The notes: generated by a model from the letters alone, not told the origin. A stretch of DNA of 64,000 nucleotides from an uncultured Pirellulales bacterium (GCA_964437685.1 CAYTHV010000002.1:2008-66007); one strand, 5' to 3'. Positions 29,377 to 46,326 are shown, counted from the stretch's first letter. Translations and numbers: made by a program.

Positions 29377-30450
29377 ATGGAATTGATGCCGCGTGAGCGA
29401 TGGATTGCAGTTATAAAACGGCAGAGAGTTGATCGTGTGCCTTGTGATATATGGGCTACGCCGGAAGTATTTGAAAAATTGGCGAAAGAACTTAATTGTG
29501 CTGATCAGTGGGCGGTTATTGATAAGCTCGAAATAGACGCTCCCTATAGGATTGATCCCACATATATTGGACCATCGCTGGCGAATGACTGTGACTTTTG
29601 GGGGGTACGGCATAAAGAAGTTAACTATGGTACCGGAACATACCATGAAGCGGCGGGACATCCGCTTGCATCAGCCATGACGGTTCGGGATATCGATAAT
29701 TATAATTGGCCGAAAGCTGAATGGTTTGATTATTCACAGTTGAAAGTTCAAGTACAGCAAAACAGCCACCGGCCATTGCGTACTGGCTGGGTCGAACCAT
29801 TTCTGTTTTATTCGAAGCTTCGAGGACTTGAACAGGCAATGATAGATATGGCGGCTGCCCCGGCTATGGTGGAATGTGCATTTGATCATATATTCCATTT
29901 TGGCTGCAGGCGACTTGAGCGAATTTTAAATGAAATCGGCAGTGTAGATTTTATTATACCGAGTGAAGACTTGGGATCGCAGCATGGGCCGTTATTCTCG
30001 TTGGAATGTTTCAGGAGATTTCATAAACCGCGGTTTATGAAATATATTGAACTGGCAAAGCAAGCGGGTTCGTATGTGTTCTTTCATACCGATGGCGCCT
30101 GTAAAGAATTTATTCCGGACCTGATTGAAATAGGCGTTGATATCTTAAATCCTATACAGCATCGCTGTCCCGGTATGGAACGGGAAGGATTAAAAAAAGA
30201 TTTCGGCAAAATGTTGGTGTTTCACGGAGGCGTGGAAAATCAGGAGATATTGCCGTTTGGTACAACTCAGCAGGTGCGTCAAGAAACCTTGGCGTGCTTT
30301 GAAACGCTGGGTGTCGGCGGCGGATACATTTGTGCTTCTTGCCATAATATTCAGCCTGTTACACCGGTTGAGAATATTCTGGCAATGTATGATACGATCA
30401 AAGAAATAGGCTCAGATACGAAATATACGATTCCACAAATTGAAAATTGA
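29377..30450 (+). CDS. Uroporphyrinogen decarboxylase / MtaA-CmuA fold protein
   Basis: RERW...DRVP, LRGLEQAMIDM, EDLGSQ, FHTDG, GGGYICASCH. Confidence 0.88.
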   Translation: MELMPRERWIAVIKRQRVDRVPCDIWATPEVFEKLAKELNCADQWAVIDKLEIDAPYRIDPTYIGPSLANDCDFWGVRHKEVNYGTGTYHEAAGHPLASAMTVRDIDNYNWPKAEWFDYSQLKVQVQQNSHRPLRTGWVEPFLFYSKLRGLEQAMIDMAAAPAMVECAFDHIFHFGCRRLERILNEIGSVDFIIPSEDLGSQHGPLFSLECFRRFHKPRFMKYIELAKQAGSYVFFHTDGACKEFIPDLIEIGVDILNPIQHRCPGMEREGLKKDFGKMLVFHGGVENQEILPFGTTQQVRQETLACFETLGVGGGYICASCHNIQPVTPVENILAMYDTIKEIGSDTKYTIPQIEN

Positions 30451-30472
30451 AGATATAAGGCTGGAGGCAAAA

Positions 30473-33055
30473 ATGCGAGCATATAAATTACTGGGTTTTA
30501 TTTTGATTTCTGTGGTATGTAATCACAGTTACGCTGTGAGTAAGGTTTCATTTGAAAGGCTTGGCGTAAATATCCCGCCAAAGACGCAGCCGTATAAGGG
30601 GATAATCAGCACAGCGGCCGGGCAGATAACATCGAAAGATGGGACGCTGGTTTTTGAGAATGGGCATTTCAGATTCCAGGTCGTGACTTCGCCGGTGCTG
30701 CAATTAACACAGCTATACAGTAAATATGCCGATGCGAACTGCCTGATGGAAAATTCAAGACTATTTATTGCATGGTTGGATGGAAAGCGGCTTTCAGAGA
30801 AAGATTTTGCAGTTAAAGATGTCGAGGTGGTTGAAAACGGCGGTCGAAAGAGTGCTGTGATTTTGTTTCAGTTGCTCTCAGAGCAATGCACGGGCAGGCT
30901 GGTAATCAGCATAGACGATTCGACAGAGATACAGTTTGATCTTTCGCTGACTAACGGCAGTGATAAGGCGAGAAGTTACCGAATGCTGTTTCCGTACTTT
31001 GAAAATGTTCAGATGGGTCAAAATGGAGCTGAAAATTATTATTTTTTCCCGTTAAAAGGCGGCATCTGCAGCAACAAACCTTATGAGCTTCAGAGCGGAT
31101 ACGGCAGTCATAATGGTTCCATACAGCTTATAAGCCTGTATAATCCGCAGCTTGGCAGTGGAATCTATACCCGGGTTGAAGATGCCGGCGGCAGGACAAA
31201 AACATTTGTCTTCCAAAAAAAGGATTGTGATGGCGATGAGGCGATTGGCAGTTTTCGAAATTTTCAGGGCATCTTTGCCGAGATGACTTTTAATGAAAAG
31301 GACATTTTTCCAAACGCGCGTGGATCGGTTCTAAGCTGCTATTCGTATCCATCCAATGTTGAGCCGAACGCGGAATTAAAAATGCCCAGAAGTGTACTGG
31401 CGGTACATGGCGGGGATTTTACATATGCACTGGATAGGTATTCGAAATGGCTGCGGACCTGGTTGAAGCATGAGATCGGTACACCCCAGTGGTATAAAGA
31501 TTGTTATTTTTATCCGGTTGCCCATGATATCGCCGGCAACACAGGCTGGGAAAAGGGCTTTATACGGGACAACAAGATTGTTTTGAGCCAGATTGCACGG
31601 CCCTATGAGCATATGATACAACTTGCATTCTGGGGTGAACATCCCAAAGACGATGGGTTGGGAGATAAGCGAGATGTTTCATGGTATCGCTTTGCAATGC
31701 CGGGTAATTTCAACTATGAGGAATCATGGGGGGGGCTGTCCGCATTGCGGGAGGAAATAAAAAAGACCAGAATGATTGGCCCGCGGATTTCGCTTTATGG
31801 TGCGACACAGTATGGGACCTGGCTGTTCTCCGATGTGTACAAGCAGCATCCCGACTGGGCACAAATTGATCAGTTGGGCAGAGAAGTGCATGACTATTGG
31901 TGGGACCTGGATAATAATAAAAATCGGGTGCGTATCGTGAATATGTGCGGGCAGGTGGAAGAGTGGCAGGATTATGTCGCACAGACTAATCATCGCATTA
32001 TCAAGGATACAGGGGCGAGCGGTATTTATCTTGATGTCATGAACCAGATACCGTTCTGTTATAATCCAAAGCATAAACATGAAGAGTATCCTGCGATATC
32101 GGCGGAAAAACTGCTCAAAAAGAATCTTGCTGCGGTACGATCCGCCGACCCTGAGGCCGTGATAGAGATTGAAGATTTTTGCTCCGATTATCTGTTGCAG
32201 TGGGTGGATGGCTGCTGGATGAAGACATTCTACCAGGATTTGCCGCCTGAATTTGAAGATACATTTGATCTTTACAGTGTTTCATTTGTGCGGTTTATGA
32301 TTCCTGAAGTGAAGTGGCCGGATTTTGGCCCGCGGTGGATACACGGCAGCCGCAGGGCATTTTTTAACGGTATGGGATATAACCTGAGCGAGGTAAACAA
32401 CAAGAATGATGATGAAGCCGCTCAGAGAATAACGAAAGAGCAGCGAGTCGATTATCTGATTGTGACAGACCAGTTGATGAAAGAGAGCAGCGATGTGTTT
32501 TCGAGTGTCGATTGTCGCTGCCTTGTACCGACATTGCAGGAAAATGTCTATGCAAATTATTTCGGTGCAAATGGCAAGAAGTTTTATACGCTTTACAATA
32601 AGAATGACAGTCCAATACAGGGACAACTTATCAAAACAGAGGGTGGCGGCAGTTATCATGGTGTTGAACTGCTATATGACAATGAGATTGAATATGATGG
32701 CCAGAGTGGAATCACAGCGATGACGGTTAAGCCGTGGGATGTAGTTTGTGTGGCAAAGCTGCCCAGGATTATGTCGCTGGAACAACAGGGAAGTATTCTT
32801 GATATTACATTGCAGAAAAGCGTCAACGGCGGCTTCCTGAAACTGTATGTCGATACGGATGATGGTAAAAATCCGGGCGAGCGAATAGATGTTCAACATG
32901 ATTTGGCAAGAATCGATCTTGCACATTATCAAGGCAAGCGGCTGATTATCAAGTTGTTTGAAGGTGGTTACTTACTGGATGAGAGGATTGTCGATCTAAA
33001 ACAAAACTTAAATTCTGCGATTATTCCAGGTAATGCGCCGGTCTGTGCCATTTAA
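30473..33055 (+). CDS. Secreted DUF6259-like putative glycoside hydrolase
   Basis: GGAGG SD and signal peptide; GASGIYLDVM, IEIEDFCSDY, FVRFMIPE; paralogous to 25274 and 33217. Confidence 0.75.
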   Translation: MRAYKLLGFILISVVCNHSYAVSKVSFERLGVNIPPKTQPYKGIISTAAGQITSKDGTLVFENGHFRFQVVTSPVLQLTQLYSKYADANCLMENSRLFIAWLDGKRLSEKDFAVKDVEVVENGGRKSAVILFQLLSEQCTGRLVISIDDSTEIQFDLSLTNGSDKARSYRMLFPYFENVQMGQNGAENYYFFPLKGGICSNKPYELQSGYGSHNGSIQLISLYNPQLGSGIYTRVEDAGGRTKTFVFQKKDCDGDEAIGSFRNFQGIFAEMTFNEKDIFPNARGSVLSCYSYPSNVEPNAELKMPRSVLAVHGGDFTYALDRYSKWLRTWLKHEIGTPQWYKDCYFYPVAHDIAGNTGWEKGFIRDNKIVLSQIARPYEHMIQLAFWGEHPKDDGLGDKRDVSWYRFAMPGNFNYEESWGGLSALREEIKKTRMIGPRISLYGATQYGTWLFSDVYKQHPDWAQIDQLGREVHDYWWDLDNNKNRVRIVNMCGQVEEWQDYVAQTNHRIIKDTGASGIYLDVMNQIPFCYNPKHKHEEYPAISAEKLLKKNLAAVRSADPEAVIEIEDFCSDYLLQWVDGCWMKTFYQDLPPEFEDTFDLYSVSFVRFMIPEVKWPDFGPRWIHGSRRAFFNGMGYNLSEVNNKNDDEAAQRITKEQRVDYLIVTDQLMKESSDVFSSVDCRCLVPTLQENVYANYFGANGKKFYTLYNKNDSPIQGQLIKTEGGGSYHGVELLYDNEIEYDGQSGITAMTVKPWDVVCVAKLPRIMSLEQQGSILDITLQKSVNGGFLKLYVDTDDGKNPGERIDVQHDLARIDLAHYQGKRLIIKLFEGGYLLDERIVDLKQNLNSAIIPGNAPVCAI

Positions 33056-33216
33056 AGCTGGTATTGAAGCAGAGACATGAAGATTTGGACGGTCACATTG
33101 AACTGATTACAAAAAAAAGTTGCGGACATCATCCCCATAGTCTCAAAGATCCGCAACCTATCGTGGACTTTATTTGGAAGTATTTTAAGGATAATACTAT
33201 TTAAGGAATTTTTATT

Positions 33217-36200
33217 ATGAATAAGAAAGCGGTTTTATTTGCAGTGGTAAGTGTGTTATGGATGGTTGGAACGTGTTATTGTGCAGAGGCAACAATCCTT
33301 GAGGACAATTTTGATAGTTACAATGAAAGCCTTTGGGGCAGCAAAGCATCAGCAATTGCCGTCGAAGATGGCAAGCTGATTAACAGGCCGCCGCAGGGTG
33401 GGGCGAATCTTATTTCTTTAAAAAAGTATAAATATGTTTCACTTGAGATGCGAGTCCAGTTTGATACGCTAAGTTCTGATTCATCGATATTTTATTATCT
33501 TGGTTTTCAGAGTGTTATTCCGTGGGCTGAAAATGTGTGCTGTTTTACGGTTCAAGACGGCTCTATGACCGCAGGGGTGGGAAAAAGTGAGCAAAAGGGT
33601 GTTCGTCAAACGGTCACGGATATCAAAGTCGGGACATGGTATGTTTTGAAGATTGAGTGGAAGCCCGAAAGTGTTGAATTCTTTATTGACGGTAAATCTG
33701 TCTTAAAAACTCAGGAGGCACAGGCAATTCCGGATGTTGCGATACCGATTTTCCTTGGTGCAAATACCCTCAGGCAAACAACGGATAAAGATGCTGCATC
33801 GCTTAGAATTGATTCGGTAAAACTGGCAGGTGAACCTCAGGAGGAAAAGGTTAAACCTGTTGGCGGTACGAGTGGGAGATCGCAGAAACAGTTTGAAAAA
33901 AGCATTGGAGATCCCGATTCGGCATTTATCCGTGTCGGTTCCCAGGTGATACATCTTGAAAATCAGAATTTCATTAATGAGCTTGCGTTTGATGGCGGAT
34001 TAAGGTGGAGTCGATTGTTTAACAAGGCGACTGAAGATGAATATCTTTCCGACAAAGATACTTCCCCGGTGTTTAAGCTTCTGGGGAAGCGATTTTCGCT
34101 TGCCTCAACAGATTTTGATATTACGGATATCAAAGTAAGTGAAGAAGGACAAAAAAAAATATTGACTGTTTTACTTGCTAATACGGAAGAAAAGATAGAA
34201 TGTGAACTTTTAGCACAAATAGATAATTCACAGGAGATACTATGGTCGCTGGCTGTGAAGAATACGGCAAAGCAAAAAGTTAAAATCAAGCCGATTTTTC
34301 CCATCATAAGCACGATTGATATTGCGGGGAATGCGGCGGGGAATAATTACTTTTTCCCATGGCGCAGCGGTATTGTCGGTAAAGTAAACTGTGATTTGTT
34401 GTATGAATATGGCGGGCTTGCATGGATGCAGATTGTCAGCATATTTAACCCCGATACAGAGACAGGATTTTATGTCTATCCCAAAGACAGCAGTGGTACG
34501 ATGAAAGGTATGATCTTTAAGAAATTTTCATCAGAAGTAGAGGGGATGGTTACCCATAGTGAACTGACCGCTTCCTATGAAGTTCCCAAAGAAGATGCAT
34601 TTGAGCTGAATGAAGGTATCGGGTTGGCATATTATTATTTTGAGCAGGAAGTTGGCGCTGGCGAACAGGTTGTATTGCCTCCGACGGCTATAGGGATTTA
34701 TCGCGGAGGATGGAAAGAAGCTCTGCAGAACTACAGCACATGGGCGCATAGCTGGTATAAACATGTAGATACACCAAGTTGGTTTATGAATAGTTTCAAT
34801 TTCCTTCCTCAGCATAAACCGGCATATTATTCAACAGAAGCGAAAAAATATGTCGCCAGTGAGCGGCTGGCCGGCTCGGAACATCTTGTTCAATGGGCGC
34901 ACTGGTGGGATTATCAGGAAAAGCAGGACTGGACTCCGGATATTTTGATGGGCAGAGAGCAGCCTGGAGATTTTGATTATAATAAAGATCGCGGCGGACT
35001 TGCAGCATTCAAGGAAGAGATTAAACGATTACAGGACAAAGGAACTCGCTTTACCGTTTATATAGACCATCGTTTCTGCTGTAAGGAGACGAAGATTGGA
35101 CAGGCTAAAGGTGAGCAGTGGGCGGCTGTTTATAAACCGGGTGGTTCGCCGGAAGGTTATGGCGGGCCGGCAGATCAATATGTGACTTGTTATATGGAGC
35201 CGAATGCATGGCCGCATTATCTGGCTCAGACATGCGGACGGATCATTAAGGATACCGGCATGGATGGAATCTATCTTGATGAGCTTGCATTGCCGTTTGC
35301 CTGTTATAATCCAGACCATATCCACAATAAAAAATACAAAAGTATTGTATATCTTCCGGCATTTGTGGCAAGTATGGTTGAATCGCGTGAAGCGATGCGG
35401 CGTGAAAATCCGGAAGCGATATTGATGACCGAGCATGCCGGCAGCGATTATTTTTCACAGTTTATCGATGGTTCGTGGTCGCAGACATTTTATGCGACAG
35501 GATTTCCTTTTGCCGAGAAATATTTTGATGATTATAGCATCAATTATTTCCATTTCTGTTTTCCCGAATTCAAGCTGGCGGAATGGGGTGATGCGCATGA
35601 TGGGCCCAGACGCTGCTTTTTTAACGGCATTGGTATTGATTGGGGCGCCGGCAGCCAGGATTACCTGCGAAAGACAGGTCAGATTCTTAAGGAAAACGGC
35701 GATGCATTTGCCTCGCGAAATCCGGAACCGATTGTAGAGACAAAGGTGAATAAAGTCTTTGCGAATAAATTCCGAGTGATCGATAAAACCGTTTACACCG
35801 TCTATAATAAGAGCGGCAAAGATGTGGACAGGGAAATTCTTGAAGTTGATCAGCGGTCGAATTATCACTGGGTTGAAATGCTGTACGATAACCCGGTCAA
35901 AGTTCGACAGGAATTGGTTAAAACCAAAGATGTGTTGTCGCTGAAAATGGACGTCAATGAAGTAGTGTGTGTCGGTCATCTTCCTGTTGTAATTAATGCG
36001 GTGAATAAAGACAAGCAGGTTGTCATTCAGCTTGTAAAGGATATTCCCGGTGCTGTGTTATATGCTTATCTTGGTGAAGATACCAGCCAGTTAAATAATA
36101 AAGGCGCTGTAAAGATTGATATTCAAAATGGGCAGGGGAATTTGACTTGTGAGCAAAAAGGCAAAGTCATTCTTAAACTTATGAAGAATGATATACTAAT

Positions 36201-36231
36201 TGATGAGGCAATTTTAAATGTTGAAAACTAA
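33217..36231 (+). CDS. Secreted ConA-like + DUF6259-like putative glycoside hydrolase
   Basis: Signal peptide; N-terminal WYVLKIEW..VEFFIDG jelly-roll; core very similar to 25274 (YFFPWRSGIVGK, GMDGIYLDEL, LMTEHAGSDY). Confidence 0.75.
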   Translation: MNKKAVLFAVVSVLWMVGTCYCAEATILEDNFDSYNESLWGSKASAIAVEDGKLINRPPQGGANLISLKKYKYVSLEMRVQFDTLSSDSSIFYYLGFQSVIPWAENVCCFTVQDGSMTAGVGKSEQKGVRQTVTDIKVGTWYVLKIEWKPESVEFFIDGKSVLKTQEAQAIPDVAIPIFLGANTLRQTTDKDAASLRIDSVKLAGEPQEEKVKPVGGTSGRSQKQFEKSIGDPDSAFIRVGSQVIHLENQNFINELAFDGGLRWSRLFNKATEDEYLSDKDTSPVFKLLGKRFSLASTDFDITDIKVSEEGQKKILTVLLANTEEKIECELLAQIDNSQEILWSLAVKNTAKQKVKIKPIFPIISTIDIAGNAAGNNYFFPWRSGIVGKVNCDLLYEYGGLAWMQIVSIFNPDTETGFYVYPKDSSGTMKGMIFKKFSSEVEGMVTHSELTASYEVPKEDAFELNEGIGLAYYYFEQEVGAGEQVVLPPTAIGIYRGGWKEALQNYSTWAHSWYKHVDTPSWFMNSFNFLPQHKPAYYSTEAKKYVASERLAGSEHLVQWAHWWDYQEKQDWTPDILMGREQPGDFDYNKDRGGLAAFKEEIKRLQDKGTRFTVYIDHRFCCKETKIGQAKGEQWAAVYKPGGSPEGYGGPADQYVTCYMEPNAWPHYLAQTCGRIIKDTGMDGIYLDELALPFACYNPDHIHNKKYKSIVYLPAFVASMVESREAMRRENPEAILMTEHAGSDYFSQFIDGSWSQTFYATGFPFAEKYFDDYSINYFHFCFPEFKLAEWGDAHDGPRRCFFNGIGIDWGAGSQDYLRKTGQILKENGDAFASRNPEPIVETKVNKVFANKFRVIDKTVYTVYNKSGKDVDREILEVDQRSNYHWVEMLYDNPVKVRQELVKTKDVLSLKMDVNEVVCVGHLPVVINAVNKDKQVVIQLVKDIPGAVLYAYLGEDTSQLNNKGAVKIDIQNGQGNLTCEQKGKVILKLMKNDILIDEAILNVEN

Positions 36232-38722
36232 TACAAAGGATTCAGCTAAAAAGCAAGACGTTCATACGATTGTTATCAATGAAAGGGTCTTTTCAGCCGA
36301 TGAAGGTTTAATGCTCGGTAATGGCGACCTTTCTGTGAGCATTTATCAGAAGCAGTCTGAGATCATATGGCGGTTTGGGAAAGGTGATGTGTGGGATCGG
36401 CGTCATCGGACAGACCTCAATGCTCGCCCGACGACCATGGATGAACTTCGAAATGGTCTGGCAAAGGAAGGATGGGTCTGTCCTGCCTATGGCGGCGATG
36501 TACAAGCCTTGAACGGAACCCGTAATCCGAAGCGGACACTTGAGATTCTGTCGCATCCGGAAAGTGAAAAGTTTCCCTATCCGGTTGCCAAGCCTGTAGG
36601 CGAACTGACGCTGCACTGGCCGCAAGATCTTCAGAACTTGAAAATTACACAAAAATTGACTATTGAAGATGGAATTGTAAATATTGTTCTTGAATGGTCT
36701 GATGGCGAAAAACTTGAGATAGAATGTTTTGTTCATCCGACACTTAATGTGCTGGTTGTGAATTGGAATTTGTCGGGATTTCACCCCGGCTCACCCCAGC
36801 CCTTTTTCAAAACCACGCCGCTGTGGCTTTCGCTCTATCGCTGGCCGGATCCGACTGTGCGTGAATTTGGTTTGCGGTGGATGAATGAATATATGTGTCC
36901 GATGTTTAAGGGGTGGTTTGATACCAAGTCTGTTCCGCTGCCGCCGCCGGGTGTCGTGAATCAGGGAGATTTCCCTGTCATTGAGCAGCAATTTTATTCC
37001 GACCCGCTTTTCCCTCAGGGATTTAAGTACTGGTTCGGCTGTATTACGGATCAACCCAACGTTGAGCCGGTTGACACAGGTGAGCTTAGAGAAGCAAGGC
37101 TTTTTATTTCACCCGTAAGAGCGCAAACAATTGACGATGTGAGCGAATTTATGACCGTTGATCAGCAGCTCAGGGATGGGACGCTTGATTATCCAAAGCC
37201 GCGGGACTATCGCGGCTGGGTGGCGATACCGGTAACGACCAGCAGTGATGAAGGCGGGCCTGAACAGCAGTTTGCAAAAATAAAGAGCATGCTGACAGGT
37301 GGAGAAGTGTTGCGGATATGGAGACAGGAATGTATTGACGAAAGCAGAAAATTCTGGTCGGCTTCAAAGGTGCATATTGATGAACTGGCGTTAGAGGAAT
37401 TGTGGTATGCCCATCTTCATGTAAGCCGATGTATCTATCGCAAAGGAACGATACCGCCGGGATTGTTTATGCCCAGCACCATCCATGATTATTCACTCTG
37501 GCATGGCGATTATCATACGAATTATAATATCCAGCAGTGTTTTTGGGGATTTTTGACGGCCAATCATCCAGAGCTGGATGAGGCCTATTTTAAGATTATG
37601 GAATTCCATGATCAAATAGGTCAGAAGATTGCACAGGAGTATTGCGGTACCCGCGGCACATTTATACAGATCAGCGGTTATCCCATATTAGCCAAGGATG
37701 ATCCGATTGGAACAAGCTGCATGGGGCGAATGCCTTATATGACAGGCTGGGCTCCTGAGATTCTCTGGTTTTATTATCTGTATACCAAGGATATCAGCTT
37801 TTTGCGCGAAAGAGCTTATCCATTTATCAGAGATTGTGCGCTGTTCTATACGGACTTTTTGTCGCGCGGTGAAGATGGGCTTTATCACGCTTTTCCTTCG
37901 TGCTGGGGTGAAGAAGGATATGATGGCACGATGGAAAAGAACATCGATGCCCTCCAGACGATGGAATATGCCAGCTCTGCAATGAAGATGGCAATCGAGG
38001 CAGCCCAAATATTAAATGTTGATCCGGATTTACAGCAGGCATGGCAGGACAGGATTGATCATCTTGCTCCGGGCAGAGGAGAAAGTGAATGGCGTTCTTT
38101 GCCGGAAGCGAAAGAACAAGCTCATCAAGACTATAATTTTCCTGCCTTTCGTCCCGGCGAGAACTACCGATTTCCGAATAAGTGGAGTCTTGCTCAGCGG
38201 TGGTGGGGCTGGATGGATAAATTAACGATTTCATGGATACGTGATGTTCGCGGCGGACAGTTTGTACCCGATCGAGATTTAGGGGAATTAGTAAAAGTTT
38301 TGCGCCGCTGGCGTCACCCAAATGGGCTGATGTGGCCGATGCCGATTCGTTACTATGGCCGTGCAGGCGGCTGGACAGAAGTTCTGGGTATTATTGAACC
38401 TTTGCAGGAAATGTTGCTGCAAAGCTGGGATAAAGTAATACGTATTTTCCCGGCATGGCCGAAAGGTATTAAAGCAGATTTTGAACAACTTAGGGCAGAA
38501 GGCGCCTTTCTTATATCCGCGCAATTTGATGGCGTTAAAGTGGTTGAAGTAACAATCAAGAGTCTTGCCGGCGGAACATGCAAGGTGGCAAATCCATGGC
38601 CGACTCAGAATGTCGCGGTAATGAAAAAGGATATCCAAAAAATCATTGCTGAGTCAGATAAAGACATTTTGGCATTCGAGACACAACCTGGAGACGAATA
38701 TCACTTGGTATGCCGTAGTTAA
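36218..38722 (+). CDS. GH95-like (alpha-L-fucosidase-like) glycoside hydrolase, no signal peptide
   Basis: LGNGD, WHGDYHTNYNIQ, YPFIRDCALFY, EMLLQSW...IFPAWP, LRAEGAFLISA. Confidence 0.75.
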   Translation: MLKTNTKDSAKKQDVHTIVINERVFSADEGLMLGNGDLSVSIYQKQSEIIWRFGKGDVWDRRHRTDLNARPTTMDELRNGLAKEGWVCPAYGGDVQALNGTRNPKRTLEILSHPESEKFPYPVAKPVGELTLHWPQDLQNLKITQKLTIEDGIVNIVLEWSDGEKLEIECFVHPTLNVLVVNWNLSGFHPGSPQPFFKTTPLWLSLYRWPDPTVREFGLRWMNEYMCPMFKGWFDTKSVPLPPPGVVNQGDFPVIEQQFYSDPLFPQGFKYWFGCITDQPNVEPVDTGELREARLFISPVRAQTIDDVSEFMTVDQQLRDGTLDYPKPRDYRGWVAIPVTTSSDEGGPEQQFAKIKSMLTGGEVLRIWRQECIDESRKFWSASKVHIDELALEELWYAHLHVSRCIYRKGTIPPGLFMPSTIHDYSLWHGDYHTNYNIQQCFWGFLTANHPELDEAYFKIMEFHDQIGQKIAQEYCGTRGTFIQISGYPILAKDDPIGTSCMGRMPYMTGWAPEILWFYYLYTKDISFLRERAYPFIRDCALFYTDFLSRGEDGLYHAFPSCWGEEGYDGTMEKNIDALQTMEYASSAMKMAIEAAQILNVDPDLQQAWQDRIDHLAPGRGESEWRSLPEAKEQAHQDYNFPAFRPGENYRFPNKWSLAQRWWGWMDKLTISWIRDVRGGQFVPDRDLGELVKVLRRWRHPNGLMWPMPIRYYGRAGGWTEVLGIIEPLQEMLLQSWDKVIRIFPAWPKGIKADFEQLRAEGAFLISAQFDGVKVVEVTIKSLAGGTCKVANPWPTQNVAVMKKDIQKIIAESDKDILAFETQPGDEYHLVCRS

Positions 38723-38742: not shown

Positions 38743-40848
38743 ATGCGCAAACATGAATGCAGGCTTGTCCCTCGGCTTTTACTGCCGCGATGGACTCGCA
38801 AGAATCATGCAGAAAATATGCTACGGTTTTGTCGTGAAATTGGCGCCGACGAGATGATGGTGTTTCCGGTCAGCCAGTTTATCGCAGCAAATCCGCCTTT
38901 TACGGATAAGACACTGCATAAGGAAGCTCAAAAGACCGCGAAACTCCGAATGCTTGCTGCCCGGCAGGGTATCAATGTTTTCATTAACCACTTCTTTTTT
39001 ATGGGAGAAGACCTTGCGCAGGATAATCCGCGGAAACGACAATTTCCCTGGGCGGTCGATATTACAGGTCAGGAGGCCAAAGGGTATCGCTGCATTCTGG
39101 CCCAGGAAACAAAAGATGCGGCGGCCAAAGAGCTTGTCGCACTGGCAAGCAGTGGAGTCGATAAGATATTTCAGGATGACGAAGTCCATTATGACTGGAA
39201 GCCGGTAGCGACGTGTAATGAGGCATTGCATTTTTGTTTTTGCGACGACCATATACGGGCATTTTCTCAGCGTATAGGCAAGAAAATCGGACGTGAAGAA
39301 CTGGTCAGGCGATTGCAGTCTGACCGACCTGCTGATGTGGCCATTCGAAGTGAATGGCTTGCATTTAAACGGGATACGTTTCTTGATTTTGTGAATTACT
39401 GCCGCCGCAAAGTACATCAAAAGTACCCCCACGTTCGATTAGGACAGATGACCACATTTACCCACTTGACGGCGTGGGATGGCATTACGTTTGCTGAGCA
39501 TCTCAAAGCCTGGGCGGGTGATTTGCGGCCGCTTTGTCGTCCTGCTCAGGGATGGTATGGCGACCATATTCGTACCGGTTTGCCGATGGCGATAGCGCAA
39601 ACCATGTGGACGATGCATTGTCTGCCGGAAAATACCGAAGTTTATAGTGAAGTGGACTGGGGTGCGCCGTGGACACAGTTTGATAGCTCGGCAAGGATGT
39701 CGGCTGACCTGCAAATCAAAGTCAATCTGCTGCTGAATATCAAAACACATAGCCTTTTATATCTTGGCGAGGGACCTGAAGATAAATTTATTCAGGCAAG
39801 GCTTATTCGGCAAATCAAAAAGAGTCGTGCCGTATTTGATGGATTGGCTAAACATTTGCCCGAAAAAGCAAGACGTACGGGTGTTCAGTTTTATATGGCT
39901 GAAAAAATGGGGTTGGCATATCCGCTCAAGCGGCGCGGCAGAGAGGGCGATCTCGCCGATCCTTATGCTCTGACCGGCGAAGGGTGGGGATTACCGCCGT
40001 GGATGAAGGCGTTTCGCTGTCTTGCTCGAAGCGGTGTGGCAATGACCTTTGACGAAAGTCCCGTGGCGGTGCTGACCGGCGGCATGGCGTCATTATTCAA
40101 AGATAAGATTAAAACGATTCTTGAAACAAAAAATTTAATTATCGATGCGGGAGCAGTGCAGGATTTAAAGGCTATGGGACTCTTGAAACAGTTCGGTCTT
40201 GAGCCCGCCAAAGAATATAAATTAACCCGTAATGAACGGCTGACTCATGATGCTTTCAACGGTGTAGCGAAAGATGAAATGGTCCCGACAGGCAGAGTCA
40301 TCCCGCCGGAAAGAGTAGTGCCCTTAAAAACGATAAAGCAAAAAACTGTCACCCATCGTGTTCTCAGTGAAATCATCGATTGTAATTTGCAGGTGCATGG
40401 AGCAGGCATTGTCTTGTGTGAACGGGTGGATACGGGAACTCGATTATGTGCCTTGTCTTATCACCTCAGTGATGAAAATGCCTGGGGTTTTGGTATTCGC
40501 AAACAGCAGTGGAGACATATTCTGGATTGGCTGGGTGGAAGAAAGTTCAAGCAGTCGGTGTGGATTGATGATGCCTGTGATGTCTGGCCGATTAGCTACA
40601 AACTCGACGGCGATAATCGAACATGGGTGGGGCTTATCAATTTTGGACATGATGAGGTTAATGATGCAACATGTTGGATTTCACAATCGGGCAAGGTGCG
40701 GGTTCATTTCATAAATACTAAAGGGCAGATGCAAAAAATTTCGAAAAAGTATATCAGGAATACAAATGGCAAAATAGGTATAACTTTGTCGGGTGAACAT
40801 GCAGTAAAAGCGTTGGATGTCCAAATGTTTATTATTGAGCCAATTTAA
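38743..40848 (+). CDS. Hypothetical protein, GH42-like TIM barrel plausible
   Basis: IFQDDEVH followed by CFCDDH; coupled within the operon; no firm family. Confidence 0.55.
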   Translation: MRKHECRLVPRLLLPRWTRKNHAENMLRFCREIGADEMMVFPVSQFIAANPPFTDKTLHKEAQKTAKLRMLAARQGINVFINHFFFMGEDLAQDNPRKRQFPWAVDITGQEAKGYRCILAQETKDAAAKELVALASSGVDKIFQDDEVHYDWKPVATCNEALHFCFCDDHIRAFSQRIGKKIGREELVRRLQSDRPADVAIRSEWLAFKRDTFLDFVNYCRRKVHQKYPHVRLGQMTTFTHLTAWDGITFAEHLKAWAGDLRPLCRPAQGWYGDHIRTGLPMAIAQTMWTMHCLPENTEVYSEVDWGAPWTQFDSSARMSADLQIKVNLLLNIKTHSLLYLGEGPEDKFIQARLIRQIKKSRAVFDGLAKHLPEKARRTGVQFYMAEKMGLAYPLKRRGREGDLADPYALTGEGWGLPPWMKAFRCLARSGVAMTFDESPVAVLTGGMASLFKDKIKTILETKNLIIDAGAVQDLKAMGLLKQFGLEPAKEYKLTRNERLTHDAFNGVAKDEMVPTGRVIPPERVVPLKTIKQKTVTHRVLSEIIDCNLQVHGAGIVLCERVDTGTRLCALSYHLSDENAWGFGIRKQQWRHILDWLGGRKFKQSVWIDDACDVWPISYKLDGDNRTWVGLINFGHDEVNDATCWISQSGKVRVHFINTKGQMQKISKKYIRNTNGKIGITLSGEHAVKALDVQMFIIEPI

Positions 40849-40870
40849 AAAAACTGGAGCAGAAAATATT

Positions 40871-42838
40871 ATGAATATGAGTATTTTGGATTGGGGTATC
40901 GTATTCGGATTCCTTGGTTTTGTGATCATTATGGGCTATCGAACCAGGAAATATTCGGGTAGCGTGGCAAATTTTTTAGCGGCGGGGCGTTGTGCTGGCA
41001 GATATCTGATTGCGGTCGCGGGCGGTGTTGCCGGCTGGGGTGCTATTAGCGCCGTGGCAGGTTTTGAATTGTATTATGTTGGAGGATTTTCCATTCAGTG
41101 GTGGTTTCTCTTGCTGATGGTAGCGAATTTGGTGGCGAGTATCTCCGGCTGGATTATTTATCGTTTCCGACAAACGCGGGCGTTGACTGTTGCGCAATTT
41201 CTGGAGCAGCGCTATAGCCGAAGATTTCGAATTTTTGCGGGGATTCTCTGTTGGTTTTCGGGCATTATGAATTTCGGGCTATTTCCTGCGGTCGGTGCAC
41301 GTTTTTTTGTATATTTTTGTGGTTTTCCTGAGACGCTCTCAATTGGCGGTTTTCAAATTGCAACCTACTCGCTGATCATGTTTGTGCTGTTGGCATTAGT
41401 GCTTTACCTGCTTTTTACTGGTGGCCAGATTGCGGTTATTGTGACAGATTTTTTTCAGGGGCTTTTCTGTAATATCATCTTTGTGATTTTGATGATAGCC
41501 ATGGCGGGGCTTTTTACATGGGCCCAGCTTACGGATGCCTTAAATATGGCGCCTGCCGGCCAATCCATGCTTCATCCTTTTGAGGCGGCGAAAACACCGG
41601 ATTTTAATATGTGGTTTTATCTTATCGGCTTTTTCTCGCTTTTTTATACATGGGTCGTTGGCGGGGGAACACAGGGATTTGAGGTTGCGGCCATTAATCC
41701 GCATGAAGCTCGAATGGGAAAGATTTTGAATAATTGGAGGGCTATTGCCCAGCAGCTTATACTTATTATTCTCCCTCTCTGTGCTTTTACGGTTCTTCAT
41801 CATCCGAGTTTCGCAACGCTTGCGCAGAAGGCGCAAACACTTATCTCTGCTGTTCATGGTGTAGGGGCAACCGAAACGGCAACACTTCAAAAACAAATGA
41901 CTGTTCCGATCACGATGAGTGTGTTTTTGGCAAAGGGCTTACTGGGTGCTGTTTGTTCGATTATTCTTGCGGCGTTTATAGCAAACCATCAAAGTTATAT
42001 GCATTCATGGGGAATTATTTTTATACAGGATGTGGTATTGCCGCTTCGTAAAAAACCGCTTACGCCTAAACAGCATATCAATCTCCTTCGATGGTCGATT
42101 TTGGGCGTTGCAGTGTTTATATTTCTGTTTGGCTTGATTTATCGCCAAAATGAATACCTTCTGATGTTTATGGTGTTTACCGGGACCATCTATATGGGAG
42201 GGGCGGGTGCGGCGGTTATTGGTGGGCTGTACTGGAAACGCGGGACAACTGCGGGTGCTTGGAGTGCATTGATTTTGGGCGTTGTCCTTGCTTTTGCCGG
42301 GCAAATTATCCGCCGTATCTGGCCTGAATTTCCTCTTAATAGTAACTGGATTTTTGCAATTGCCATGGTCAGTTGCAGTTTGCTGTATATCATTGTATCG
42401 CTTTTGGGCAGACAGCAGATTGATATGGATCGGTTACTCCATCGGGGTAAATATGCGATTTCCGATGATGCCGTCGCCAGGGATGAAACGCCGGTGCGCG
42501 GATTCAAGGCACTGATTGCAATGGGACCGGAGTTTACGCTGTGGGACAAAGTAGTCTATTTGTCAAGCATCGGCTGGACACTGCTTTTGTGCGTAGTCTT
42601 CATTGTCGGAACATTCTGTAATCTGCTCTTAGATGTGAAATTGGAGACGTGGACGCAGTTCTGGTGGGTCTATGTGGTGATCATGTTTGTGCTGAGTGTG
42701 ATTACGACGGTGTGGTTTATTATAGGCGGCATACGTGATTATCGAAAGATGTTCTATCTTTTAAGAACCCGCAAAGTTGATGATACGGATAATGGCAGGG
42801 TTTCCCAGCATTTGGCAGAGATGGCTGTGGAAGAGTAA
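40871..42838 (+). CDS. Sodium:solute symporter family transporter
   Basis: About 14 hydrophobic segments; FLAAGR, TVAQFLEQRYS, GGQIAVIVTDFFQ, GLYWKRGT. Confidence 0.92.
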   Translation: MNMSILDWGIVFGFLGFVIIMGYRTRKYSGSVANFLAAGRCAGRYLIAVAGGVAGWGAISAVAGFELYYVGGFSIQWWFLLLMVANLVASISGWIIYRFRQTRALTVAQFLEQRYSRRFRIFAGILCWFSGIMNFGLFPAVGARFFVYFCGFPETLSIGGFQIATYSLIMFVLLALVLYLLFTGGQIAVIVTDFFQGLFCNIIFVILMIAMAGLFTWAQLTDALNMAPAGQSMLHPFEAAKTPDFNMWFYLIGFFSLFYTWVVGGGTQGFEVAAINPHEARMGKILNNWRAIAQQLILIILPLCAFTVLHHPSFATLAQKAQTLISAVHGVGATETATLQKQMTVPITMSVFLAKGLLGAVCSIILAAFIANHQSYMHSWGIIFIQDVVLPLRKKPLTPKQHINLLRWSILGVAVFIFLFGLIYRQNEYLLMFMVFTGTIYMGGAGAAVIGGLYWKRGTTAGAWSALILGVVLAFAGQIIRRIWPEFPLNSNWIFAIAMVSCSLLYIIVSLLGRQQIDMDRLLHRGKYAISDDAVARDETPVRGFKALIAMGPEFTLWDKVVYLSSIGWTLLLCVVFIVGTFCNLLLDVKLETWTQFWWVYVVIMFVLSVITTVWFIIGGIRDYRKMFYLLRTRKVDDTDNGRVSQHLAEMAVEE

Positions 42839-42879
42839 AAAAAGATTATTTATTTGGCAACTGATGGGATAAAGAATTA

Positions 42880-43911
42880 ATGAATTCAAGAGAATTAGTG
42901 AAAAAGACTGTGGAGTTTAGCAACCCGCCGCGGATACCTCGACATTTGTGGACACTTCCCTGGGCTAAGGATTATTTTGGGAAAGAGCTTGCGGCGATGC
43001 AGCGAGAATTTCCTGATGATATCTGCATGTCGCCGGCTTTTTTGAAAGAAACTCTGGTAACGACAGGGGATCCCTATGTCGAGGGAAGCTATACGGATGA
43101 ATGGGGCTGTGTTTTTGAAAATAAACACAAAGGGATTATCGGCGAGGTAAAGACACCTCTGGTTATCTCATGGTCTGACTTGGACAAGGTGAAAGCTCCC
43201 CAGAGTTTACTGAGTGTGGATACGGCTCAGGTTAACGCCTTTTGTAAATCAACGGATTTGTTTGTATTGGCGGGTTGCGGCCTGCGGCTTTTTGAGCGAT
43301 TGCAGTTTATCCGTGGAACTGAAAATATCTTTATGGATATTGCAGAAGAGTCAAAGGATTTTTATGCACTCATCAATCGCGTACATCAGTTTAATATCCA
43401 GCAGGTGGAATTGTGGGCCAAAACCGATGTGGATGCGGTGATGGTCAGTGATGACTGGGGTGCGCAACGGTCGCTTCTGATTTCTCCGTCTGCATGGCGA
43501 TCACTTTTTAAGCCGCTTTATAAAGATTATATTGATATTGCGCATCGCCATGGGAAATATATGTTTATGCATTCAGATGGCTATATCAAGGATATCCTTC
43601 CGGATTTGATTGAATTGGGTCTTGATGCGATTAATTGTCAGATATTCTGCATGGATGTGGCGGATATTGGCAAAAAATTCAAAGGCAAGATAACTTTTTG
43701 GGGTGAAATTGATCGCCAGCATATTCTTCCCAATGCAAATATTGATGAAGTGGCACAGGCGGTAGATCTGGTCCAATCGTCCCTGTATCATCATGGCGGC
43801 GTAATTGCCCAATGTGAATTTGGTCCCGGAGCCAGGCCGGAAAATGTTTATATGGTATTTAAGGCTTGGGACGAAGCCCTGAACGAAGCATGTTTGAAAG
43901 TCCAATGCTAA
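42880..43911 (+). CDS. URO-D / MtaA-CmuA fold protein
   Basis: DEWGC, LQFIRG, DDWGAQ, MHSDG, FWGEIDRQ, QCEFG. Confidence 0.88.
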   Translation: MNSRELVKKTVEFSNPPRIPRHLWTLPWAKDYFGKELAAMQREFPDDICMSPAFLKETLVTTGDPYVEGSYTDEWGCVFENKHKGIIGEVKTPLVISWSDLDKVKAPQSLLSVDTAQVNAFCKSTDLFVLAGCGLRLFERLQFIRGTENIFMDIAEESKDFYALINRVHQFNIQQVELWAKTDVDAVMVSDDWGAQRSLLISPSAWRSLFKPLYKDYIDIAHRHGKYMFMHSDGYIKDILPDLIELGLDAINCQIFCMDVADIGKKFKGKITFWGEIDRQHILPNANIDEVAQAVDLVQSSLYHHGGVIAQCEFGPGARPENVYMVFKAWDEALNEACLKVQC

Positions 43912-43924
43912 AGGAAATCCGTTG

Positions 43925-45046
43925 ATGAACTCAAAAGAGAGGATGCTTATATCGCTGCATAAGGGTAAGCCTGACAGATTGCCGGTAACGGTACATCAAT
44001 GGCAGCAGTATCATCTCGATACCTATATGAATGGCATGGATGCTTTGTCCGCATTTAAGGTCACTGGCATGGATGCGGCGATCCAGTACTTTGAAGCAAT
44101 GGGACAGTTTTGGATACCCGATGCGGAAAAGTATATTGTGCAGACGGATCAATGGCAGGAAGATATCAAGATTGTCAGTTCCGATCCGGCCAGGAAAATA
44201 TTGCATCACACGATTACTACGCCGGAAGGGGAGTTGACCTATAAGACCGGCAGTAATTCCGTGACTACATGGATATTGGAGTATATGGTCAAAAAGCATG
44301 AGGATATTGACCTGATAAAAAAATATATGCCGGTTGCGAAATTAAATAAGGAAAATATTGCCAAAGCATATGATCAAGTAGGTGATGCCGGTATTTTACG
44401 TGGTTTTGTCTGGGGGGATCAGGCTGGATGCTGGCAGCATGCCTGTTGTTTAATGGATGTCAATGATCTGATTATGGAAGCGATGGACAATCCGGATTGG
44501 GTCCATGATTTTATGGGCATATTGCTGGATAAAAAGATACGTTTTGTCGAAGAATCTCTGAAAGGTGCGAAATTTGATCTTGTTGAAACCGGGGGTGGTG
44601 CCGGCAGCGACACCCTGATTTCTCCGGAAATGCACCGAAAATTTTGTTTACCTTACGACCGCCAGATTCACCGTAAACTCCATGAATTCGGGCATATCAG
44701 TACTTACCATACCTGCGGCGGTATGATGCATATTCTTAACCTCATTATTGAAAATGGAACAGATGCCTCTGAAACATTGTCGCCGCCGGGAACAGGTGGA
44801 AACATAACTGATCCGGCCGTAGTAAGAGAAGCATACAAAGATAGGGTAGCGATGATTGGCGGGATGGATCAGTTTAATATCCTGACGACCGGAACACCCC
44901 AACAGATTAAGGCCGAAGTCCGGCGTTTATTCGAAGGCTTCGGCAAAAACGGAGGGTATATTCTCTCTGCTTCGGACCATTTTTTTGAAGTGCCACCAGA
45001 GAATTTAAAAATTTATGCGGCGGCGGCTAAAGAATGCGTGTATTAA
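43925..45046 (+). CDS. URO-D / MtaA-CmuA fold protein
   Basis: MNSKERM...DRLP, YHTCGG, IGGMDQ, GYILSASDH. Confidence 0.88.
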   Translation: MNSKERMLISLHKGKPDRLPVTVHQWQQYHLDTYMNGMDALSAFKVTGMDAAIQYFEAMGQFWIPDAEKYIVQTDQWQEDIKIVSSDPARKILHHTITTPEGELTYKTGSNSVTTWILEYMVKKHEDIDLIKKYMPVAKLNKENIAKAYDQVGDAGILRGFVWGDQAGCWQHACCLMDVNDLIMEAMDNPDWVHDFMGILLDKKIRFVEESLKGAKFDLVETGGGAGSDTLISPEMHRKFCLPYDRQIHRKLHEFGHISTYHTCGGMMHILNLIIENGTDASETLSPPGTGGNITDPAVVREAYKDRVAMIGGMDQFNILTTGTPQQIKAEVRRLFEGFGKNGGYILSASDHFFEVPPENLKIYAAAAKECVY

Positions 45047-45069
45047 ATAGATTATGGAACTTCTTTTCT

Positions 45070-46326
45070 ATGAAATCAGATAGCAAGAGTGATGAAGTAC
45101 AGCCCTTTGAACGCGATGTATTGCGTCGGTTAGCGGGGAGGTTGGCAGAGATTGCAGCCATGCCGATACAGACTCAGCGAATTAATCTGTGGAAAAGTTT
45201 TAATTCGCTGATGCCCAAACGTCCCATGGTGCTGGCCTATCCGGAGGGCGGCTGGCGTGAGTTATTGCCGGAATCTGTTTTGCAGTGCAGCAATCCTCTT
45301 TTGCGGGAGTGGGAACTGACCCTGCGTAAAACTATTTACCAGTTTGAGCATATTTATGATGACCAGCCTGTGACAAATTTCTTTAACATTGGTTGGGTTG
45401 TTGAAATAGGCGACTATGGTTTAAAAGAAAAAAATATCCGTACCGCGGAACTTGGCTCTTTTGGCTGGGAACCGCCTGTGAAAACAATAGAAGATGTGGA
45501 TAAGCTGCACTTTCGGATGATTCAAGTCAATAGACAAGAGACCAACCGGCGGGTGCAATTAGCGAAAGATATTTTTGGCGACATCCTCAAGGTGCGTATA
45601 TATGGCCCTTTATGGTGGTCGCTCGGTCTTACCGGAGAACTTATTAAACTTCGTGGTCTTGAACAGGTGATGCTTGATATTTATGAGAATCCGGAACTAT
45701 TGCACCGTTTAATGACGCTGCTGCGCGACGATGCATTAAATATGCTGAACATATTTGAAAAAGAAGATATATTTTCGCTAAATTCAGGCCCGGATGATTT
45801 TGTGGGTTCTGCTGGCATCGGGGCAACCGATGAATTGCCGGCTCCTGACTTTGGCGGACATGTGCGCCCCCGGGATATGTGGGTATTGGGTGAAAGTCAG
45901 GAATTTGTCGGAATTGGGCCCGACCATTTCCATGAATTTGCACTCCAGTATCAACTCCCGATTCTTAATCGTTTCGGACTGGTTTGTTATGGATGCTGTG
46001 AGCCGCTGGATCAAAAGTTCGATTTGCTGATAAAACATATCAAGCGATTACGTCGTATTTCCGTATCGCCGTGGTGCAATCGAAAGATTGCCGCCGAAAA
46101 ACTTGGCTACAAGTATATTTATTCATGGAAGCCGAATCCTGCGACGATTTGCGGTGGCACCGTGGATTATAAGCAGCTTGAACAGGATATTCGTGAAACT
46201 CTGGATATTGCCAAAGGCTGTTGTGTAGAGATTATTATGAAAGATACACATACCTTTAATGGCGATGTCCAGCGGATAACAAAGTGGAGTCAAATCGCGT
46301 CTCGATTGGCAGAAAATATAAAATAG
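45070..46326 (+). CDS. Divergent URO-D-fold protein (YGCCE type)
   Basis: LRGLEQVMLDIYENPELLHRLM, CYGCCEPLD, RISVSPW; alternative start 45034. Confidence 0.65.
   Translation: MKSDSKSDEVQPFERDVLRRLAGRLAEIAAMPIQTQRINLWKSFNSLMPKRPMVLAYPEGGWRELLPESVLQCSNPLLREWELTLRKTIYQFEHIYDDQPVTNFFNIGWVVEIGDYGLKEKNIRTAELGSFGWEPPVKTIEDVDKLHFRMIQVNRQETNRRVQLAKDIFGDILKVRIYGPLWWSLGLTGELIKLRGLEQVMLDIYENPELLHRLMTLLRDDALNMLNIFEKEDIFSLNSGPDDFVGSAGIGATDELPAPDFGGHVRPRDMWVLGESQEFVGIGPDHFHEFALQYQLPILNRFGLVCYGCCEPLDQKFDLLIKHIKRLRRISVSPWCNRKIAAEKLGYKYIYSWKPNPATICGGTVDYKQLEQDIRETLDIAKGCCVEIIMKDTHTFNGDVQRITKWSQIASRLAENIK

Follow-up and report, generated by a model that had tools for sequence, protein, structure and literature searches.

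The closest described systems to the one considered here are the three-component corrinoid-dependent O-demethylases and dehalogenases, whose substrate:corrinoid methyltransferases (MT1) belong to the UroD/MtaA superfamily, which includes O-, S- and halogen-demethylase methyltransferases (PMC10418091). The known MT1 enzymes OdmB, VdmB, MtvB and CdmB work with a corrinoid protein (CP), a second methyltransferase (MT2) and an ATP-dependent activating enzyme. The present analysis concerns four genes of this superfamily, P0001 to P0004, that lie in a glycan-catabolic locus of a 64,000-nucleotide stretch of DNA (hereafter the window) from an uncultured Pirellulales bacterium (GCA_964437685.1, CAYTHV010000002.1:2008-66007), whose assembly comprises 3.44 Mb in 304 contigs and is 96% complete. 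Judging by the names of close homologues, the organism belongs to the Phycisphaerae (Sedimentisphaerales-like), a lineage of anaerobic planctomycetes. Their products are, on balance, probably corrinoid-dependent methyltransferases. With a likelihood that we place close to, and slightly under, an even chance, they are MT1-type enzymes housed in glycan loci that share a corrinoid hub in trans and demethylate imported O-methyl sugars. Somewhat more tentatively, such a decentralised hub-and-spoke B12 network could be the missing oxygen-independent route of sugar O-demethylation, with dozens of enzymes per genome, in at least six phyla, around one shared carrier, from which the methyl groups would reach tetrahydrofolate, acetyl-CoA or methionine. 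Oxygen-free demethylation of imported sugars is made probable by the B12 carrier and the re-activator that are encoded elsewhere in the genome.

The four proteins share with the three-component O-demethylases the superfamily fold, a cytoplasmic location (no signal peptide was found in P0001 to P0004) and mostly anaerobic hosts. Furthermore, their genome encodes a cognate-type carrier, a RamA/RACo-type activase and a pterin-binding MT2 candidate, and relatives from Hydrogenedentota are found in the canonical MT1-CP-MT2 order. However, the substrates of the three-component systems are aryl methyl ethers or halomethanes, and their components share one operon, whereas the presumed substrate here is an aliphatic sugar methyl ether with a much poorer leaving group, and the putative MT1 genes are scattered in glycan loci, far from the carrier genes. 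No characterised three-component MT1 was found among the PDB matches of the window proteins.

Sugars with methyl ethers occur commonly in the glycans of plants, algae and microbes (4-O-methyl-glucuronate, 2-O-methyl-fucose and -xylose, 6-O-methyl-galactose, methylated mannose and rhamnose). To our knowledge, the only known sugar O-demethylase is an oxygen-dependent cytochrome P450. This 6-O-methyl-D-galactose demethylase from aerobic marine Bacteroidota is reportedly a monooxygenase that releases formaldehyde, and its gene belongs to a polysaccharide-utilisation locus. The proposed system would serve the same physiological purpose, freeing a sugar of its methyl ether for entry into central metabolism, but with an unrelated fold and cofactor, without oxygen and with conservation of the methyl group. 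Our literature search retrieved no publication that connects URO-D-family proteins or corrinoids with glycan loci or methylated sugars. The proposed system differs from the three-component ones in the presumed substrate, the altered metal triad and the decentralised architecture with dozens of spokes per genome.

The open reading frames (ORFs) and translations agree with the four genes that the earlier note, made from the sequence alone, had located, and with the motifs that it had quoted from them (FFHTDG...ASCHN, FMHSDG...AQCE, YHTCGG...SASDH and VCYGCCE). P0002 to P0004 indeed stand in tandem directly after the gene of a sodium:solute symporter of the SSS family (40817-42838). The four genes are the following:

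29377..30450, plus strand: P0001, URO-D/MtaA-superfamily paralogue of 357 aa (PF01208), site H-T-D ... C-H
42880..43911, plus strand: P0002, URO-D/MtaA-superfamily paralogue of 343 aa (PF01208), site H-S-D ... C-E
43922..45046, plus strand: P0003, the most conserved paralogue, 374 aa (PF01208), site H-T-C ... D-H
45034..46326, plus strand: P0004, very divergent URO-D-fold protein of an unnamed family, 430 aa, invariant G-C-C-E

All four come from a large radiation, still unnamed, within the UroD/MtaA superfamily; they belong to the URO-D superfamily, yet neither to HemE nor to the curated MtaA family. PF01208 (gathering cut-off 23.9 bits) matches P0001 with 59.9 bits, P0002 with 51.3 and P0003 with 84.9. 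These matches start at profile position 94-151 and span only positions ~95-345, roughly the C-terminal two thirds of the profile (151-345 in P0001). P0001 to P0003 matched only NCBIfam models of the MtaA/CmuA type; the scores on TIGR01463 (40.6, 27.6 and 72.5 bits, respectively) are all below its curated cut-off of 235 bits, and P0004 does not match it. P0004 had no match in the Pfam and NCBIfam profile scans, and it is by hhalign and Foldseek alone that it is a remote member of the superfamily. Its family profile aligns with the P0003 family with an hhalign probability of 93.5%, YGCCE being placed on YHTCG (this motif register is taken from hhalign, MAFFT misplacing the motif). The only significant PDB matches of its AlphaFold model (pLDDT, the predicted local distance difference test score, of 92.9) are uroporphyrinogen decarboxylases (Foldseek probability 1.00, E 8e-7, template-modelling (TM) score ~0.5-0.6). 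Its 3697 homologues are all unnamed. Since they are ~410-417 aa long and residues 1-18 of the model have a pLDDT <50, the true start of P0004 is probably the second Met, at 45070.

The Pfam family name URO-D, and some public annotations that call the orthologues uroporphyrinogen decarboxylase, would make HemE or another tetrapyrrole-pathway enzyme of the four proteins. We give this reading practically no chance. With 51-85 bits, the matches are weak, and they do not cover the N-terminal third of the profile, whereas true HemE from related genomes score 300-460 bits over profile positions 1-346, and no HemE NCBIfam model reaches E 1e-3 for any of the four proteins. The source genome carries 33 URO-D matches, with glycosidases, transporters and sugar oxidoreductases as neighbours instead of the single copy in a tetrapyrrole context expected for HemE, and no haem genes lie near the URO-D genes of the sugar loci. 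No true HemE was found in the whole genome, its two top URO-D matches (212 and 187 bits) being MtaA-like. The URO-D load is also high elsewhere, with 19-47 scored matches per genome in five genomes from other phyla and up to 79 first-look candidates among the related Phycisphaerae. HemE function was therefore rejected on the low scores, the high copy number and the sugar-gene context, in line with the earlier note, which had likewise taken the proteins not to be HemE.

Also among the closest known systems are the methylcobamide:coenzyme M methyltransferases MtaA and MtbA (TIGR01463; PDB 4AY7 and 4AY8), which provide the best structural match of P0003, the best NCBIfam models for P0001 to P0003 and the position of the motifs. 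The P0003 model (pLDDT 84) has MtaA structures as its top PDB matches (4AY8, E 8e-15; 4AY7, 1e-13; TM 0.65-0.72), ahead of the decarboxylases; PDB sequence searches gave marginal uroporphyrinogen decarboxylase matches for P0003 and none for P0004. The four proteins nevertheless differ from MtaA/MtbA by their low scores (28-72 bits compared to a cut-off of 235), a changed triad and a context devoid of methanogenesis and coenzyme M. In P0003, residues 79-120 form an inserted beta-meander of four strands, and there is an additional Cys/His-rich loop with an invariant CWQHACC; a low-confidence loop of the model carries the invariant motif GDQAGCWQHACC. Across 30 orthologues of P0003, seven Cys and numerous Trp and His residues do not vary.

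The four motifs coincide with the H-x-C...C zinc positions of MtaA, according to an alignment with the MtaA-like paralogues of the genome and, for P0004, to hhalign. None of them is the His-x-Cys ... Cys triad: the residues are HTD..CH, HSD..CE, HTC..DH and YGCCE. The aligned paralogues of the genome form a graded series at these positions: H-x-C...C in MtaA-like paralogues (only those on contigs C83 and C24 keep the triad), HSCG...H in many, H-x-D...C/E in P0001, P0002 and a paralogue on C59, and D-x-D...D-H in three. One of the MtaA-like paralogues (212 bits; C18, 2801-5439) forms a fusion with a thioredoxin-like domain, and a CobW-type GTPase follows it. The long reading frame of this fusion was found again in relatives, and the fusion resembles the MtaA-like "mlp" clusters proposed for methyl-sulfur/methyl-selenium metabolism (PMC10418091).

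The resemblance to MtaA raises the question of whether the proteins are corrinoid-dependent but act on other small methylated solutes taken up by the SSS transporter (methoxylated aromatics of plant origin, methylated amines, sulfonium or thioether compounds), or are partly of the MT2 type, P0003 and P0004 especially passing the methyl group to a thiol acceptor. MtaA is the nearest solved structure to P0003, which retains H-x-C in addition to its CWQHACC loop, and the invariant G-C-C-E of P0004 recalls the adjacent-cysteine zinc site of homocysteine methyltransferases. Methyl-sulfur or methyl-selenium compounds have also been suggested as substrates for clusters of related MtaA-like proteins (PMC10418091). 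However, the neighbourhoods are overwhelmingly carbohydrate-related (GH29, GH95, GH38, GH43, GH78, sulfatases and RhaM, together with sugar ABC and SSS transporters and LacI and AraC regulators), it is hard to see what purpose dozens of MT2-type enzymes per genome would serve, and the genome already holds MtaA-like, pterin-binding and homocysteine-type methyl acceptors. We therefore regard this explanation as rather improbable. Within a sugar O-demethylation relay, the role of P0003 may nevertheless differ from that of the others, with a very common substrate or a thiol-directed step, because of its exceptional conservation, its CWQHACC loop and its resemblance to MtaA, the closest of the four.

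The earlier note had emphasized that no corrinoid partner accompanies the four genes. This is true of the window and of the whole contig that carries it (C2), on which no B12-binding or RACo match was found, but it does not extend to the genome, where corrinoid proteins, an activase and acceptors are encoded on other contigs. Candidate carriers encoded elsewhere, as far as genomic evidence goes, are the very situation that the note had named as speaking against its idea. A 207-aa protein with B12-binding_2 and B12-binding domains (C80, a contig that also carries a URO-D paralogue) scores 196 bits on the "methyltransferase cognate corrinoid protein" model compared to 139 on MetH, and a second small corrinoid carrier is encoded on C136. 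The genome also encodes a RamA/AcsV-type (RamA/RACo-type) activase (C48), DUF1638 proteins (C80 and C152), a pterin-binding methyltransferase-like protein (Pterin_bind, C289), a homocysteine S-methyltransferase homologue (C118) and a Wood-Ljungdahl CdhD with a RACo (C59). Carrier, MT2 and activator, i.e. all the components of an MT1 system, are present in the same genome, with other clients possible. Large distances also separate the carrier, the activase and the listed URO-D genes in a closed genome from the same family, so that assembly fragmentation does not account for their dispersal.

No full-length MetH was found in the genome; carrier function, pterin binding and homocysteine binding seem to be distributed over separate proteins, as in a split methionine synthase. 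Such a split enzyme, made of a carrier, a pterin-binding protein and a homocysteine methyltransferase and reactivated by a RamA-like protein and DUF1638, was revealed by fitness genetics in Phaeobacter and Desulfovibrio (PMC5764234). The genome of the Pirellulales bacterium contains the same component set as the split methionine synthases (MtgC/MtgD with MtgB in Ruegeria; three-piece MetH with RamA-like and DUF1638 proteins in Phaeobacter), on separate contigs and unlinked in the closed genome. The use of one carrier for several methyl donors, for methionine synthesis as well as by a catabolic demethylase, has an experimental precedent in MtgC/MtgD with MtgB (PMC12478193, PMC5764234). The additional donor in that case is a member of the MttB family acting on glycine betaine, whereas here the candidates are dozens of UroD-superfamily proteins in carbohydrate loci. 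Since other clients are possible for the carrier and the activase, the hub genes permit, but do not demonstrate, a corrinoid role of P0001 to P0004.

Some matches were not retained as parts of the hub. The RACo on C59 was not counted as methyltransferase machinery, its neighbour CdhD placing it with the Wood-Ljungdahl corrinoid iron-sulfur protein (CoFeSP), and the B12-binding matches on C127 and C18 probably correspond to B12-radical-SAM-type proteins. The set of CdhD, RACo, DUF3786 and CobW on C59 (268-9129) lies 3 kb from a P0002-type URO-D paralogue flanked by two Gfo/Idh/MocA oxidoreductases; this second, CoFeSP-type RACo is mostly missing from members of the genome's own family. On C80 (1-6759), the corrinoid gene stands between a fusion of DUF1638 with a hydantoinase/ASKHA-type ATPase (ORF cut by the contig end) and divergently transcribed genes for electron-transfer flavoprotein (ETF), the first a beta-alpha fusion and the next an ETF-QO-like gene. 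This set may be an uncharacterised corrinoid reactivation module receiving electrons from ETF. The genome also carries five MttB-family genes (C30, C24, C12 and C113), which suggest quaternary-amine demethylation in a planctomycete. One adjoins an MtaA-like URO-D gene (C24) and another (C12:24301-25743) has an in-frame TAA and is possibly a pseudogene.

The earlier note had recommended an analysis of genome neighbourhoods. This analysis revealed carbohydrate-related neighbourhoods and, in other phyla, homologues adjoining corrinoid machinery. A module made of GH95, the 701-aa protein, the SSS symporter, URO-D genes and a P0004-like gene was found in two other planctomycete metagenome-assembled genomes (MAGs), at L055/L056 and at L090. 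The L090 module is 71-83% identical to that of the window (GH95, 74%; 701-aa protein, 80%), and at L055 a 703-aa gene occupies the position of the 701-aa protein. Orthologues of P0003 (66-79% identical) are present in 408 species and span six phyla: Planctomycetota, Verrucomicrobiota, Hydrogenedentota, Acidobacteriota, Armatimonadota and MAGs labelled Omnitrophota. Their commonest neighbours are SSS transporters, besides further URO-D genes, sugar ABC transporters, LacI/AraC regulators, GH29, GH43, GH95 and RhaM. SSF transporters are also among the commonest neighbours of the genome's other paralogues. The 29 URO-D paralogues found outside the window mainly neighbour sugar genes: Gfo/Idh/MocA (7), SSS (5), Amidohydro_2 (4), xylose-isomerase-like barrels (3), as well as sulfatases, GH95, GH78 and aldolases of the dihydrodipicolinate synthase (DHDPS) type. 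Genes of the P0004 family often begin inside, or just past the stop of, an upstream URO-D gene, a translational coupling that suggests a heteromer; they also adjoin xylose-isomerase-like, Gfo/Idh/MocA and aldo-keto-reductase genes.

Homologues with 33-50% identity are genetically linked to corrinoid machinery at three loci from other phyla (L157, L158 and L160). In an Opitutaceae genome (L157), the order is DUF1638, activase, URO-D, URO-D (50% to P0002), P0004-like (33%), MtaA-like (on the other strand), URO-D (38% to P0003) and three more URO-D genes; the gene with 50% identity to P0002 is two genes downstream of the RamA-type activase. The Hydrogenedentota locus (L160) shows a classic MT1-CP-MT2 operon, made of URO-D, corrinoid protein, Pterin_bind and a URO-D gene of the D-x-D...D-H type, with a divergent gene 46% identical to P0002. 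In Acidobacteriota (L158), the order is URO-D (34% to P0001), corrinoid protein, S-methyl_trans, DUF1638, MtaA-like and activase. In the maximum-likelihood tree, each of P0002, P0003 and P0004 has a member of the L157 array as its strongly supported sister, and P0001 belongs to a well-supported clade of 17 rows with the carrier-adjacent URO-D of L158. The corrinoid-linked genes are spread through the radiation instead of forming one clade, and the motif classes HxC..H, HxD..CE, DxD..DH and HTC..DH were all found among them.

The distribution of the activase is also informative, keeping in mind that the counts include related genomes, which are not independent samples. The activase family was found in 41 of the 42 genomes with a P0003 orthologue compared to one of the 14 control genomes. 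Among 121 Phycisphaerae genomes, 67 have both URO-D and activase, 41 have neither, four have only the activase and nine only URO-D, five of these nine having just a true HemE. In a mixed Phycisphaerae family (f7), the same five of 16 genomes have both. In Verrucomicrobiia (72 genomes listed), at least seven first-look URO-D candidates, a proxy for scored matches, were found in 26 of the 30 activase-positive genomes and in none of the 42 activase-negative ones, many of which carry a true HemE. This co-distribution of URO-D and activase in two phyla is hard to explain by corrinoid-independent sugar enzymes. That small corrinoid proteins co-occur with URO-D expansions was downgraded from a support to a necessary condition, in view of the five MttB genes and of the published split methionine synthase.

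During this survey, the match to the RamA-type activase (RACo_C_ter) was often found with exactly one in-frame stop, in many Verrucomicrobiia (e.g., G121:C39:1868-2620, G146:C79 and G154:C20) and several Phycisphaerae. It is nearly always TGA in the former and TAA, TAG or TGA in the latter, and could correspond to selenocysteine, to a conserved split into two genes or to programmed recoding.

Several observations weigh against corrinoid-dependent demethylation of sugars in trans. (i) The canonical H-x-C...C triad is altered in all four proteins, and the D-x-D...D-H variants found elsewhere in the genome look closer to the hard-metal sites of sugar enzymes. (ii) Carrier, MT2 and activator are not encoded with P0001 to P0004 in the window, and no carrier, activase, DUF1638, pterin-binding or homocysteine-methyltransferase gene was detected within 8 kb of 80 P0003 orthologues (tblastn, 1.0 Mb). 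(iii) The cross-phylum identity of P0003 (66-79%) is unusually high for a substrate-specific MT1. (iv) The corrinoid-linked homologues, given their identities of 33-50%, are members of paralogous subfamilies and not orthologues. (v) The hub genes could be sufficiently explained by a split methionine synthase with RamA-like and DUF1638 reactivation (PMC5764234), and the five MttB-family methyltransferases, as other possible clients, and the Wood-Ljungdahl CoFeSP provide further explanations. (vi) Since the hub genes have such other explanations, the co-distribution may reflect a shared lifestyle or lineage; moreover, two Phycisphaerae genomes (G003 and G093) have 5-7 URO-D matches without activase. 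(vii) As many as 33 paralogues would share one or two carrier proteins. (viii) Sugar O-demethylation is a putative assignment of the substrate.

Some of these points favour corrinoid-independent, metal-dependent enzymes acting directly on the sugar, by isomerisation, epimerisation, dehydration, decarboxylation of uronic or ulosonic acids or a similar reaction. No corrinoid gene lies in the window or near the 80 P0003 orthologues, and the site has diversified to H-x-D, D-x-D...D-H and C-C-E, unlike the thiolate-rich sites of alkyl transfer and recalling divalent-metal sugar enzymes. Gfo/Idh/MocA, xylose-isomerase-like barrels, Amidohydro_2 and DHDPS-type aldolases are typical neighbours in multi-step sugar conversion, and P0004 has weak structural matches to ketose 3-epimerases, ranking below those to uroporphyrinogen decarboxylases. 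However, such enzymes would leave unexplained the near-complete restriction of the URO-D expansions to activase genomes in two phyla, the activase in 41 of the 42 P0003 genomes, and the same subfamilies and motif classes in MT1-CP-MT2 and activase operons of three other phyla. The decarboxylation catalysed by UROD uses the pyrrole ring as an electron sink, and sugars lack such a sink. Furthermore, no sugar-acting member is known in the superfamily, whose chemistries are listed in PMC10418091. We thus consider this alternative unlikely, although less so than other substrates or an MT2 role. The earlier note had proposed a fold repurposed for sugar chemistry; the glycan-catabolic operon that it described and the O-demethylation that it listed, our best guess, are retained. 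In contrast, repurposing away from corrinoid chemistry is not supported, given the hub genes of the genome, the corrinoid-linked homologues and the activase co-distribution, and no specific support was found for the decarboxylation or isomerisation that it also listed.

Under corrinoid-dependent O-demethylation in trans, the GH95, the two GH38 and the DUF6259 proteins would release methylated mono- or oligosaccharides, which the SSS symporter would take up. Each URO-D-fold enzyme would hold the methylated sugar in its barrel, where a metal at the variant H/D-x-C/D ... H/C/D site, in place of the MtaA zinc triad, would polarise the ether oxygen. The variant site could plausibly serve as a Lewis acid for this oxygen, by analogy with MtaB, in which zinc activates methanol; aliphatic alkoxides are poor leaving groups. 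The methyl group would pass to the Co(I) of the corrinoid protein encoded elsewhere (C80, 207 aa; possibly C136). The methyl-Co(III) protein might then be unloaded by the pterin-binding methyltransferase (C289), the homocysteine S-methyltransferase homologue (C118) or an MtaA-like enzyme (C83, C18, C24), and the methyl group would end in tetrahydrofolate, the Wood-Ljungdahl pathway or methionine. Co(II) would be re-reduced by the RamA/AcsV-type ATPase (C48) with DUF1638. MT1 genes would thus sit where substrates are released and imported, the carrier, activase and acceptors being encoded once, elsewhere. The docking of the four proteins to the corrinoid protein and their binding of a metal are presumed. 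The choice of an O-methyl sugar as the probable methyl donor comes from the context, i.e. the glycosidases of the cluster, the upstream SSS gene, the LacI control and the fucosidases, RhaM and sugar transporters that recur beside the orthologues. As a speculation, the two GH38 genes hint at methylated mannose-containing glycans.

The survey of ORFs and Pfam domains places the four genes in a co-directional cluster on the plus strand, from ~20.6 kb to 57.6 kb, with the following other members:

20600..21694, plus strand: LacI-family regulator at the head of the cluster (Pfam LacI, Peripla_BP_1, Peripla_BP_3)
between the LacI regulator and the N_methyl/DUF1559 gene, plus strand: two LamG proteins
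24359-25213, plus strand: pseudopilin-like (type-IV-pilin-like) N_methyl/DUF1559 protein, within the glycan operon
25274..29278, plus strand: LamG and DUF6259 protein of 1334 aa, putatively glycan-binding or glycan-cleaving (Pfam Laminin_G_3, DUF6259)
30440..33055, plus strand: DUF6259/GHL6-like protein (Pfam)
33217..36231, plus strand: DUF6259 protein with an N-terminal 3-keto-disaccharide-hydrolase-like domain (Pfam)
36218..38722, plus strand: GH95 glycosidase, a fucosidase/galactosidase family (Pfam Glyco_hydro_95_cat, Glyco_hydro_95_C)
38743..40848, plus strand: 701-aa protein of unassigned family, a conserved partner in the module
40817..42838, plus strand: SSS-family sodium:solute symporter, the presumed substrate importer (PF00474, TIGR00813)
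46369..49188, plus strand: GH38 alpha-mannosidase-family protein (Pfam)
49185-51626, plus strand: 813-aa protein of unassigned family
51662-52543, plus strand: creatininase-family amidohydrolase (176 bits), between glycosidase genes
52568..55783, plus strand: second GH38 alpha-mannosidase (Pfam)
55820..57627, plus strand: xylose-isomerase-like TIM barrel, with a Zn-dependent dehydrogenase, for later steps of sugar conversion (Pfam AP_endonuc_2, ADH_zinc_N); both families are found again beside URO-D paralogues elsewhere

The 701-aa protein had no Pfam, NCBIfam or PDB sequence match and the 813-aa protein no PDB or family match. The former, always placed between the GH95 and SSS genes and highly conserved in the syntenic L090 module, is a candidate new glycoside hydrolase or accessory protein. 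An N_methyl/DUF1559 protein in a glycan operon is typical of bacteria of the Planctomycetes-Verrucomicrobia-Chlamydiae (PVC) group, and N_methyl proteins were found again beside other URO-D paralogues of the genome. The creatininase-family protein might strip an N-acyl or lactam-type modification.

The P0003 and P0004 families comprise thousands of sequences annotated no further than "uroporphyrinogen decarboxylase family". If the corrinoid reading is wrong, the fold has gained a sugar chemistry that has not yet been described. If true, corrinoid-dependent sugar O-demethylation in trans would add a new substrate class and a new decentralised architecture to B12-dependent methyl transfer, would account for a B12 requirement of anaerobic glycan degraders and would tie glycan breakdown to one-carbon and methionine metabolism.

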